NCBI GenBank assembly: GCA_046590875.1
Contig: JBKJTK010000238.1
Span: 1-38,431 of the forward strand
Length of the DNA stretch: 38,431 nt
Direction of reading: 5' to 3'
Origin: Chiayiivirga sp.
GTDB lineage: Bacteria > Pseudomonadota > Gammaproteobacteria > Xanthomonadales > Xanthomonadaceae
In this document: piece after piece, positions 598 through 2,118 of the stretch
Numbering within the stretch: the stretch's first letter is position 1
How the letters are laid out: every line of letters starts with the position of its first letter
Notes under the pieces: model-generated
What the model was told of the DNA's origin: nothing
Databases searched by the model: none
The model's input: only the letters and a program-made list of their open reading frames with translations
Made by a program: the position numbers and the translations under genes

Positions 598-1119
598 ATG
601 GCCTTCAACGTCCGCGAGATATTCGGTGCCCTCAACGGCGCAGAGGTGGATTACGTCGTCGTCGGCGGGCTCGCCGTCATCCTGCACGGCTACCTGCGAG
701 CAACCGCCGATCTTGATCTGGCCCTTGGCTTGTCGCCCGAAAACGCCCGGCGCGGCATGGTCGCGCTAGCATCCATCGGGCTGCGGCCAAGGTTGCCGGT
801 GGCACTGGAAGACTTCGCCGACGCTGACAGGCGCGCGGAGTGGATCAATACACGCAACATGCTCGTGTTCCCATTGTGGGACCCGGCCAATCCGTTGCGG
901 TCGGTTGATGTTTTCATGAACGAACCCATTGCCTTTAGCCGCCTGCTGGAAAATGCGGTCATCAAGGACCTGGGTGAATTGCCGGTGCCGGTGGCTTCCA
1001 TTGACCATCTGATAGAGATGAAGCGACTGGCCGGGCGGCCACGCGATCTGGAGGACATTGATAAGCTGCAGCAGATTCGTGATGCGAAACAGGCCGATAC
1101 CGATGACAGCCAATCTTGA
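598..1119 (+). CDS. Minimal nucleotidyltransferase-fold protein (AbiEii/DUF1814-like, pol-beta NTase superfamily), 173 aa
   Basis: ATG lies 12 nt after the icmF stop. NTase signature VVGGLAVILHGYLRATADLDLAL, a third acidic motif SVDVF, and a C-terminal IEMKRLAGRPRDLEDIDKL helix typical of AbiEii-type NTases. High GC3. Confidence 0.75.
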   Translation: MAFNVREIFGALNGAEVDYVVVGGLAVILHGYLRATADLDLALGLSPENARRGMVALASIGLRPRLPVALEDFADADRRAEWINTRNMLVFPLWDPANPLRSVDVFMNEPIAFSRLLENAVIKDLGELPVPVASIDHLIEMKRLAGRPRDLEDIDKLQQIRDAKQADTDDSQS

Positions 1120-1315
1120 ACAGGTGCCAAGCTGCACCTTTGAGGACGCCGAGCGCGAGCACCTTCGCGCGTGGATGGGACTCAGCACAGCAGCAAAAAT
1201 CGATTTCTTCGAGGAAATGATAGAGCTGGCCTACCAGAGCGGCGCCTTGTCGCCCGAGCGCTTGGCGTTGCGAGCGCGCGTGCCCAACGAACCACCAACG
1301 CCTCGGTCTAGTTGA
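1103..1315 (+). CDS. Small hypothetical protein (70 aa), putative partner of the upstream NTase
   Basis: ATG at 1103 overlaps the NTase 3' end by 17 nt. The frame is GC3-rich. Weak colinear similarity to the ORF after the second NTase (IDFFEEMIEL...PER vs IDLMEVVEAL...PER). No strong RBS. Confidence 0.5.
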   Translation: MTANLEQVPSCTFEDAEREHLRAWMGLSTAAKIDFFEEMIELAYQSGALSPERLALRARVPNEPPTPRSS

Positions 1316-1413
1316 TCATCGACATTCTGATGGAAGCGGTGAAGGCGCATTTGCGGGGGCAGACCAGCCATGCCCTCCATGACGTCGGCGGCGAATACCG
1401 CCGCAACAAGTGA
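1312..1413 (+). pseudogene. Ghost of an icmF allele: junction codons (L)IID fused in frame to the last 29 codons of icmF
   Basis: 1313-1324 tgatcatcgaca matches icmF 17-28 with 1 mismatch. 1327-1413 aligns ungapped with 499-585, about 64/87 nt by hand count. Translation [29 protein letters not shown] compares with [29 protein letters not shown]. Confidence 0.75.
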
Positions 1414-1943
1414 CGATGTCACGCCTCGCCGATCAGATCCGCGAGGCCGTCGCGGCCTTCGCCGAACTCGCGTTGCCGCACGCGCTCATCGGGGGTCTCG
1501 CACTCGCCGCGCACAAGGTGGTGCGCGCGACGCGCGACGTCGACTTCCTGGTCGATGCCCACGACGCTGACCGCGTACACGATATGGTGATCCGGCTCGG
1601 CTACCGCTGCGTGCACCGCAGCCCCGACGCGGCGAACTACCTGCGCGGCGACGAAGGCCTGGATTTTCTCTACGCACATCGCCCCGAAGCCCGCCGCCTC
1701 TTGCTCGAAGCCGACCATCGCGACAGCGCGCTAGGCCGCCTGCGCGTGGTCAGCGCCGAAGGCCTGATCGGCTTCAAGTTGCAGGGCTATGTGAACGATC
1801 CGCGTCGCGTCCAGGACCTGGAAGACATCCGCAACCTGCTGCGCGTGAATGCCGATCAGCTCGACATGCAAGAGATCCGCCGCTACTTTGCGATCTTCGA
1901 CCGCGAATCCCTGCTCGATGACCTCCTCACCGACCGACGCTGA
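1410..1943 (+). CDS. Second minimal nucleotidyltransferase-fold protein (AbiEii/DUF1814-like), about 175 aa
   Basis: GTG at 1410 overlaps the ghost icmF TGA; the first ATG is at 1416. Signature LIGGLALAAHKVVRATRDVDFLV, GLDFLY, and C-terminal GFKLQGYVNDPRRVQDLEDIRNL. Only distantly related to the 598-1119 protein. Confidence 0.7.
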   Translation: MTMSRLADQIREAVAAFAELALPHALIGGLALAAHKVVRATRDVDFLVDAHDADRVHDMVIRLGYRCVHRSPDAANYLRGDEGLDFLYAHRPEARRLLLEADHRDSALGRLRVVSAEGLIGFKLQGYVNDPRRVQDLEDIRNLLRVNADQLDMQEIRRYFAIFDRESLLDDLLTDRR

Positions 1944-1980
1944 CAACGGTGCACCGCCGACCGAAGCCCCGCTCACCGTC

Positions 1981-2118
1981 GTGGCCGGCTGGCACTCCGT
2001 GCTGCCCGTGCCCCAGTACCCAATAGAGGCCTGGATCGACTTGATGGAAGTGGTGGAGGCGTTGTGTCCGGTGTGGCCGGAGCGTGATGGTGCGGGGCAG
2101 TGCGATTATCGGTTGTGA
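1981..2118 (+). CDS. Possible small partner ORF of the second NTase (start uncertain; may be decayed)
   Basis: This frame stays open through the NTase stop. GTG at 1981 gives MAGWHSVLPVPQYPIEAWIDLMEVVEALCPVWPER..., which is colinear with the 1103-1315 product. The only ATG (1849) would give a 95-nt overlap with a junk-like N-terminus. Confidence 0.3.
   Translation: MAGWHSVLPVPQYPIEAWIDLMEVVEALCPVWPERDGAGQCDYRL

Follow-up and report, generated by a model that had tools for sequence, protein, structure and literature searches.

Two small nucleotidyltransferase (NTase) genes, each followed by a still smaller open reading frame (ORF), lie directly behind 3' ends of icmF at positions 598 to 2,118 of a 38.4-kb stretch of Chiayiivirga sp. 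DNA (JBKJTK010000238.1; all 38,431 nt, hereafter the window), raising the question of what such paired genes do and why they are joined to the end of a metabolic gene. The window is one entire contig of a metagenome-assembled genome with a completeness of 86%, and icmF denotes here the gene of the fused isobutyryl-CoA mutase/GTPase (NCBIfam NF045497, E = 4e-70), not the IcmF of type VI secretion. From 5' to 3', the locus comprises an intact icmF tail, the NTase N1 with its small ORF s1, a remnant or ghost icmF tail, and the NTase N2 with its small ORF s2 (Table 1). The initial annotation of this DNA had described the two cassettes as a candidate toxin-antitoxin (TA) or defence-like module; its coordinates and gene content were borne out when the ORFs and tails were re-read, with NTases of 173-177 amino acids (aa) placed within 12 nt of an icmF tail or at an overlapping start (N1 at 598, N2 at 1416 or 1410).

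The answer favoured here, which we regard as fairly probable, is that the locus holds two toxin-first pairs of TA type, similar to MenAT1 and belonging to the MenT/AbiEii superfamily, which are promoterless at this site, ride on icmF expression and represent the cargo of an insertion site. N1 and N2, sharing a pol-beta fold, would nucleotidylate tRNA 3' ends and arrest translation, and s1 and s2 would each bind their own NTase and switch it off. This could occur through occlusion of the positively charged active-site cleft by the small protein, through self-phosphorylation of the active-site threonine (T36 in N1, T39 in N2), as with MenA1 acting on MenT1, or through both routes.

Two nucleotidyltransferases and their small partners

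By the terms of the initial annotation, the idea would fail if the NTases belonged to a well-characterised housekeeping family; both fall instead in uncharacterised Pfam families, and the toxin MenT1 is the only protein of solved structure to which they are related by sequence. N1 matched PF19502 (DUF6036; 25 bits, cut-off 23.6) and not PF08843, while N2 matched PF08843 (AbiEii; 25.1 bits, cut-off 22.5) over its N-terminal 41 residues only and scored just under the cut-off of PF14907 (NTP_transf_5; 30.8 against 31.2 bits). Both gave sub-threshold Pfam matches to Aminoglyc_resit, no NCBIfam model matched either of them, and the AbiEii model of PADLOC produced an insignificant match for N2 (E = 0.016) and none for N1. 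Homologues formed 656 clusters for N1 and 2190 for N2.

Among PDB sequences, MenT1 (8AN4, 8AN5, 8RR5) was the only significant match for either protein. With phmmer, 8AN4 was matched by N2 at E = 2e-4 and by N1 at E = 0.004; the N2 family profile reached E = 7.9e-7 over residues 9-159 of 176, and the N1 family profile E = 0.003. The AlphaFold2 model of N1 (predicted local distance difference test, pLDDT, 88; predicted template modelling score, pTM, 0.82) pointed in the same direction, as the five best Foldseek neighbours were MenT1 chains from the three entries (E = 6e-6 to 6e-5, template modelling score 0.57-0.67), ranking above TM1012, ANT(2'')-Ia and LnuA (E = 1e-4 to 3e-3). Judged by sequence and by the model of N1, N1 and N2 are distant homologues of MenT1, a proven Mycobacterium tuberculosis toxin of 196 aa that adds cytidine monophosphate to tRNA 3' ends (PMC10435456).

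The complete pol-beta NTase signature that had been read in both proteins stands. N1 carries GG23-24, a spacer of 13 residues, D38-L-D40, D104, K142 and D150/D153; the corresponding motifs of N2 are GG26-27, the same spacer, D41-V-D43, D83, K121 and D134/D137. In alignments of 26 sequences from each family, the motif columns were invariant or nearly so: T36, K142 and D153 are invariant and D38 nearly invariant in the N1 family, and T39, D41, K121 and D137 are all invariant in the N2 family. Hidden Markov model (HMM) alignments to 8AN4 equate T39/D41/K137/D152 of MenT1 with T39/D41/K121/D137 of N2, whose TRDVD motif is numbered as in MenT1 (T39, D41), and with T36/D38/K142/D153 of N1. These four MenT1 positions are those at which substitutions were built (PMC10435456), and T39 is the phospho-acceptor in MenT1 self-phosphorylation (PMC11375011). 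The two NTases are only distantly related to each other, as had been claimed: BLAST-level similarity is limited to about 45 N-terminal residues (30-34% identity), which argues against a recent duplication, and hhalign identifies them as distant homologues (probability 96%, E = 4e-9).

The short ORFs behind the NTases are both real genes, with conservation at the protein level in other genomes. The s1 family includes at least 81 protein clusters, among them separately called hypothetical proteins of Lysobacter, Luteimonas, Dokdonella and Rhodanobacter, and shares the invariant core K.DFFEEM..LA..GAL..ERL..R. For the s2 family, clustering at 50% leaves 35 representatives, almost all of them 47-84 aa long, with the core AW.DLMEVVEALCP.WP. 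In both families, entropy at codon position 3 is about twice that at positions 1 and 2 and the cores are free of stops, a codon pattern by which s1 and s2 are under purifying selection; since the conserved cores lie 3' of the NTase stop, overlap with the NTase cannot explain it. Both products are acidic (isoelectric point 4.8 for s1, 4.05 for s2). The AlphaFold2 model of s1 shows helices at residues 13-25, 29-46 and 51-58; its pLDDT exceeds 90 across residues 11-50, and a fold search with it returned no structural neighbour in the PDB. Neither small protein matched Pfam (the AbiEii model included), NCBIfam or PADLOC, and the same was true of distant s1-like ORFs. The colinear pattern previously noticed between the two (W..IDFFEEMIEL..PER and W..IDLMEVVEAL..PER) is literally present; the homology that it seemed to indicate could not be detected by profile-profile comparison, in which the narrow and broad s1 profiles matched the s2 profile with probabilities of 1.6% and 0.3%.

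Pairing was assessed in 80 metagenome loci with N1 relatives and 80 genome loci with N2 relatives, and the expectation that homologous loci would keep a downstream small ORF held almost without exception. At 60% identity or more, s1 followed N1 in 40/40 evaluable loci. N1 relatives at 41-54% identity keep an ORF of 58-75 aa with the motif RLxWLEE.LELA..GAL, which usually overlaps the NTase stop by a few nt, and two apparent exceptions among these distant relatives also carry such an ORF. By tblastn, s2 was found behind N2 in 77/80 loci; the three misses comprise a diverged s2 (L064), a locus cut by a contig end (L057) and one real loss (L087, Aquimonas voraii), in which the invariant catalytic D83 of the NTase has become alanine and adjacent invariant residues have changed too. 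In two decayed modules (L030, L014), s2 is retained although the NTase no longer has its catalytic N-terminus. Partners are type-specific, the s1 type always accompanying N1 and the s2 type N2. This obligate pairing, together with the pattern of decay, is what an NTase harmful without its partner would predict. No natural fusion of NTase and small ORF occurs among the approximately 240 homologues listed, the longer of which read through ghost icmF tails.

The icmF stop codon as an insertion site

Expression of the two modules appears to depend on icmF. A pattern scan detected no sigma-70-like site between 585 and 2118, Rfam gave no match in the same interval, and all four starts (N1, s1, N2, s2) lack a Shine-Dalgarno sequence. 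Each start, that of the ghost mini-ORF included, lies 2-12 nt past the preceding stop or overlaps it: N1 begins 12 nt past the icmF stop, s1 overlaps the N1 stop by 17 nt and s2 overlaps the end of N2 by 26 nt. The lack of promoter and Shine-Dalgarno sequences and the tight stop-start spacing suggest that the modules are probably co-transcribed with icmF and translationally coupled to it. For s1 and s2, the best starts are those in Table 1, the ORF list giving longer versions; for N2, ATG 1416 is more likely than GTG 1410, which would overlap the ghost stop, because homologues begin with MSRL. The hairpin 3' of s2 could possibly mark the end of an icmF-N1-s1-N2-s2 transcription unit, which is suggestive at most, as terminator-like hairpins were not enriched (2 found, 3.1 expected in shuffled sequence).

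Table 1. Positions in the window of the two cassettes, the icmF-derived tails and the downstream hairpin.
Feature	Position	Strand	Evidence and remarks
icmF 3' end, intact tail	1..585	+	NCBIfam NF045497, E 4e-70; Pfam MM_CoA_mutase; stop codon 583-585
N1, 173-aa minimal nucleotidyltransferase, putative toxin	598..1119	+	DUF6036 family; MenT1-like; ATG 598
s1, 70-aa acidic three-helix protein, putative antitoxin of N1	1103..1315	+	ATG 1103
Ghost icmF tail, 33-codon open remnant	1312..1413	+	tblastn E 4.5e-9
N2, 175-aa minimal nucleotidyltransferase, putative toxin	1416..1943	+	AbiEii N-terminal match; MenT1-like; alternative GTG 1410
s2, 66-aa acidic protein, putative antitoxin of N2	1918..2118	+	ATG 1918
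Weak terminator-like hairpin 3' of s2	2168..2183	+	pattern scan
Third fragment derived from icmF (tail residues 5-28, approximately)	3485..3554	+	direct repeats, tblastn

The ghost mini-ORF opens on the s1 stop and closes on the N2 start, and for this exact span it may serve as a translational relay. Positions 1327-1407 are homologous to icmF residues 167-193 (81% aa identity); at the nucleotide level the ghost is 75-76% identical to positions 499-578 of the intact tail, from which it differs by 12 synonymous and 7 non-synonymous changes (ratio of non-synonymous to synonymous rates, dN/dS, 0.08). The third icmF-derived fragment lies between a glutathione S-transferase gene (-) and a DUF2058 gene (+) and was recovered as direct repeats D3 and D7 (82% and 77%) and by tblastn (E = 3e-4), with 81% nt identity over 74 nt. 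The beginning of the ghost mini-ORF (1312-1326, TTGATCATCGACA) is identical over 11-12 nt to that of the third fragment (3487-3500, GATGATCATCGACAAGG) and corresponds to icmF codons MIIDKE, an identity by which the first ghost may derive from a full-length tail through internal deletion.

Comparable ghosts recur in the family. Among 151 genomes surveyed, 112 of which carry icmF, about 17 of the icmF-bearing genomes have at least one extra tail 0.3-6 kb downstream of the intact gene. On the right these ghosts always reach the stop codon, while on the 5' side they begin anywhere between residue 1 and residue 167, which argues for homologous or illegitimate recombination rather than site-specific integration. 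An att core within icmF was considered, the longest ghosts starting near the RRAVAIQMIINKELG codons and 1314-1325 matching 3490-3500 over 11-12 nt; as a general rule it was rejected on account of this range of left ends. No match to PF00589, the tyrosine recombinase family, was found on the 38-kb contig, a search that did not extend to other recombinase families, and no clean empty-site joint indicative of excision was seen among the assembled contigs, the only material inspected.

The cargo that separates the intact tail from the first ghost is N1-s1 or N2-s2, a DUF4160/DUF2442 pair (L016, L017), an 80-aa ORF with DUF2283 (L019), or something larger. In Luteimonas terrae (L009, 5224-7363), an AAA_15/AAA_21 ATPase and a DUF4435 protein, which we take to be the domain combination of PARIS, a defence system, are encoded just after a ghost. 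Within a genome, dN/dS between intact and ghost tails ranges from 0.03 to 0.5 and is mostly 0.1-0.25. Such low values imply that most of the divergence arose while both sequences were functional gene ends in different lineages, so at least one tail of each pair was imported; they rule out duplication in place followed by decay. The icmF stop codon is a recurrent insertion site in the family.

The succession of events at the present locus is hinted at by a relative of the same genus, Chiayiivirga sp. UW_DM_XAN1_1 (genome G075, one 226,343-nt contig identical with locus L036). The ghost before N2 is 83.5% identical to the intact tail preceding the N2 orthologue of G075 and 73.8% identical to the tail of another genome of the genus (G011), which suggests that N2-s2 was resident first and that N1-s1 entered later with a new tail. 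The composite order icmF-N1-s1-short ghost-N2-s2 recurs (L024, L042, L067, L081, L146, L161, L167/168), and N1 is the icmF-proximal unit wherever both modules are seen. In a related strain from a sediment metagenome of a separate study (run X4), N1-s1-ghost is about 96% identical to positions 549-1405 of the window; past the ghost stop, different DNA follows (TGTAGCTGTCTGCGC...), so that the N1 unit has another downstream neighbour there.

On these grounds, the favoured reading of the locus would have each cassette arrive together with the icmF 3' end of another lineage at the icmF stop hot spot. The displaced old tail, truncated at its 5' end, would stay as a ghost, and units would stack with the newest adjoining icmF. 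A TA pair would resist loss through recombination between the flanking tail repeats, and this resistance to deletion would account for the dominance of TA-like pairs among the small cargo. In other genomes, further putative TA pairs (DUF4160/DUF2442; the 80-aa ORF with DUF2283) fill the same slot, which lends indirect support to the stabilising or addiction role inferred for these units in the initial annotation.

Several features of the icmF end itself were observed alongside. Its last 30 nt often read GTGGGTGGGGAGTATCGGCGGAATATG (many loci, L016-L035), with the codons GGT, TAT and AAT, poor in G and C at the third position and odd for high-GC genomes; its nucleotide sequence is conserved in intact and ghost tails alike. 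The first 60 nt past the icmF stop in L200 (genome G037) resemble a tRNA T-arm and 3' end (GGTTCGAGTCCCACC), beyond which lie a Dam-like methyltransferase ORF and an opposite-strand ORF of 796 aa, a content that may represent an island of a different kind at this site. In the window, a repetitive extragenic palindromic (REP)-like unit (CCCTCCCCTTCAAGGGGAGGG...) sits in frame within the icmF tail at 388-432 and lengthens it by about 16 residues relative to the NCBIfam model; copies with 93% identity occur near 35.1 kb (35174-35216, +; approximately 35084-35140, -).

The modules also occur away from icmF. N1 matches were present in 16/151 genomes and N2 matches in 17/151, and in Luteimonas, Chiayiivirga and other genera members of both families are found immediately 3' of icmF. 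In 23/80 N2 loci, the end of an intact or ghost icmF tail is at most 60 nt upstream of N2, and in five more it is within about 170 nt; among the 43 close N1 loci, such a tail ends within 80 nt of N1 in 26. The remaining 17 close N1 loci and about 50 of the 80 N2 loci are not at icmF. N2-s2 follows a manC-like gene (Pfam NTP_transferase and MannoseP_isomer) in L074, L088 and L089 and a fumC/aspA-like gene (Lyase_1 and FumaraseC_C) in L064 and L086, with the N2 start (locus position about 3001) offset by -4 to 12 nt relative to that gene's stop codon; other N2 loci belong to Comamonadaceae, in the Betaproteobacteria. These sites indicate that the modules are autonomous two-gene units and not accessories of IcmF. 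N2-s2 modules are repeatedly joined to the 3' end of an expressed gene. No ghost tails were found behind N2-s2 modules that follow manC-like, fumC-like, SDR or histidine-kinase genes, and a decayed icmF tail beside N2 outside an icmF context was seen in L049 alone (34/54 matches; at most 26 in the null).

In betaproteobacterial loci (L085, L091, L107, L109, L110, L115), the Comamonadaceae among them, N2 is preceded at about 25-30 nt from its start by a conserved box, (G)C(G/C)(C)TATGAT(G), which is possibly the module's own -10 element. At a comparable distance, the icmF tail carries GCGCTGTATGACG.

Taken further, the NTase-small ORF pairs, the DUF4160/DUF2442 pairs and the like might be the payload of an undescribed, integrase-free cassette system, a tentative proposal that we consider possible though on balance doubtful. 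In such a system, the replacement icmF 3' end would act as a homology arm, with entry at the stop codon by RecA-type or homology-facilitated illegitimate recombination and the build-up of head-to-tail arrays. Persistence would come from a toxin that punishes deletion and from expression borrowed by translational coupling, and the open ghost mini-ORF may relay translation to the next unit. Similar arrangements are known for phage 21/e14 in Escherichia coli icd and for tandem islands at tRNA and tmRNA genes, where a replacement 3' end is likewise supplied, the displaced end is left behind and serial arrays form. Elements of the phage 21/e14 type encode a site-specific integrase and use a fixed crossover site, whereas the units described here are as small as 0.55-0.8 kb, leave ghosts with variable left ends and have no PF00589 member on the contig.

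The 5' boundary of the window is a further matter of assembly. The window starts within icmF, the assembly break having fallen inside a conserved gene; the upstream part of icmF is on contig C336 of the same assembly, which overlaps window positions 1-117 by 117 nt (100% over residues 1-39). Elsewhere on the contig, a direct repeat of 75 nt with 95% identity (24666-24740 and 28065-28139) lies within minus-strand ORFs, its copies 3.4 kb apart.

Known systems and competing explanations

MenAT1 of M. tuberculosis (MenT1 Rv0078A, MenA1 Rv0078B; PDB 8AN4, 8AN5, 8RR5) is the closest characterised system. It shares with the modules the minimal NTase of about 175-196 aa, the common fold, the equivalents of T39/D41/K137/D152, the single operon and a small helical partner, of 66-70 aa here and 68 aa in MenA1, a helical protein without a DNA-binding domain (PMC10435456). 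There are also differences: MenAT1 occurs in Actinobacteria and the present hosts are Lysobacterales and Burkholderiales; the NTase families described here, with 656 and 2190 clusters, are much larger than the reported set of 21 menA1 homologues; and the modules are promoterless and coupled to a housekeeping gene. AbiEi-AbiEii and MenA3-MenT3 (DUF1814/COG5340) belong to the same NTase superfamily, to which N2 is linked by its AbiEii N-terminal match and both NTases by the C-terminal K...D motif, but their NTases are 250-300 aa long with an extra C-terminal domain, and their antitoxin is an upstream winged-helix protein of 200-290 aa (COG5340). Upstream of each NTase stands an icmF tail, intact or ghost, and no antitoxin of AbiEi/COG5340 or MenA1 type was found there. 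The initial annotation had set both gene order and small size apart from AbiE, MenAT and MntA-HepT; relative to MenAT1, NTase-first order and partner families do differ, while the small size has its match in MenT1 (196 aa) and MenA1 (68 aa) (PMC10435456). A literature search returned nothing relevant on DUF6036, PF14907, DUF2204 or an icmF island or hot spot.

Several observations count against two MenAT1-like pairs acting as mobile cargo. Identity to MenT1 is just 22-26%, and the link between N1 and MenT1 is weak by sequence alone (E = 0.003-0.004). The small proteins match no PDB sequence, MenA1 included, nor AbiEi or other known antitoxins, and no fold match to MenA1 was found; all characterised MenAT and AbiE pairs have the opposite gene order. 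A physical interaction between NTase and small protein is deduced from co-occurrence only, and the coupled loss of s2 and D83 in L087 is a single observation. As to mobility, same-genus comparisons on the imported tail are contradictory, G090 and G017 giving opposite answers; N2 divergence roughly follows icmF divergence (r = 0.56-0.66), so at least some copies would be old vertical residents and not active selfish elements; and in a plasmid collection N2 had no match and N1 remote matches only.

The strongest competitor, which we nonetheless consider unlikely, is a phage-defence (abortive-infection) system in which the NTase is held inactive and freed on infection, as in AbiE; it differs from a TA pair in role and not in biochemistry. 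It draws on the match of N2 to the AbiEii Pfam model and, weakly, to that of PADLOC, and on defence-type genes 3' of icmF in relatives, namely the AAA_15 and DUF4435 genes of L009 and, in L199 and L200, an ORF with an N-terminal motif of OLD/AAA_15 type (by-eye reading) accompanied by a methyltransferase-like ORF. Against this, the PADLOC match of N2 is far below significance and N1 has none, the modules are slaved to the expression of a metabolic gene, and there is no evident phage-related trigger or sensor.

A two-subunit enzyme without toxicity, in which the NTase would modify a small molecule such as an aminoglycoside or lincosamide and the small protein would be a specificity or regulatory subunit or a split C-terminal domain, seems improbable. 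The resistance enzymes ANT(2'')-Ia and LnuA, with TM1012, are indeed the next structural neighbours after MenT1, both NTases have the sub-threshold Aminoglyc_resit matches, and NTase plus small ORF amount to about 245 aa, near the full AbiEii length. MenT1 entries nevertheless outrank these enzymes, and MenT1, complete at 196 aa, can be aligned with N2 over its whole length. Resistance NTases are not known to depend on an obligate small partner, and the splitting of a longer protein is at odds with both the lack of fusions among the listed homologues and the lack of AbiEii model matches to the small ORFs.

Minimal NTases act as antitoxins in the MntA-HepT family (MNT-HEPN, type VII TA), whose organisation resembles the present one in having the NTase first, a smaller second gene and overlap or coupling between them. 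The roles could accordingly be reversed, with the NTase an antitoxin that nucleotidylates a small toxin, s1 or s2; this has very little probability. The second gene of MntA-HepT encodes a HEPN RNase with an Rx4-6H motif, whereas s1 and s2 have no Pfam HEPN match and no conserved Rx4-6H in the family alignments, and they reach only half the length of HepT. The K and D motifs at the C-terminus of the NTases are those of the AbiEii/MenT lineage, and decay proceeds in the opposite sense, the NTase being lost first and the small ORF kept, with the one s2-less locus holding an inactivated NTase. A role of the NTases as IcmF accessories in enzyme modification or cofactor handling, to which the position of their starts, 2-12 nt away from the stop codon of icmF in numerous genomes and several genera, might point, is equally hard to credit and largely refuted by distribution, given that most icmF genes in the family have neither NTase, that many N1 and N2 loci lie away from icmF, and that two unrelated cassette types and other TA-like pairs share the slot.

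Significance of putative toxin-first pairs joined to gene ends

If the two pairs do behave as MenAT1-like, toxin-first modules, two large and environmentally widespread branches, from Lysobacterales and Comamonadaceae and involving hundreds to thousands of protein clusters, would join the MenT/AbiEii toxin superfamily. DUF6036 and NTP_transf_5 would acquire a predicted activity, and two small-protein families that currently have no model a predicted role. As two new and mutually unrelated neutralisers, s1 and s2 would be natural tests of how general antitoxin-induced threonine self-phosphorylation is. The setting would be unusual for TA pairs, which would be promoterless and joined to a housekeeping stop codon, that of icmF here and, elsewhere, of manC-like and fumC-like genes. 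That cassettes accrete together with imported gene ends, with no recombinase in sight, is the less ordinary part of the locus, and the stacking of units with ghost ends from other lineages would make the recombinase-free spread of small selfish cassettes testable.

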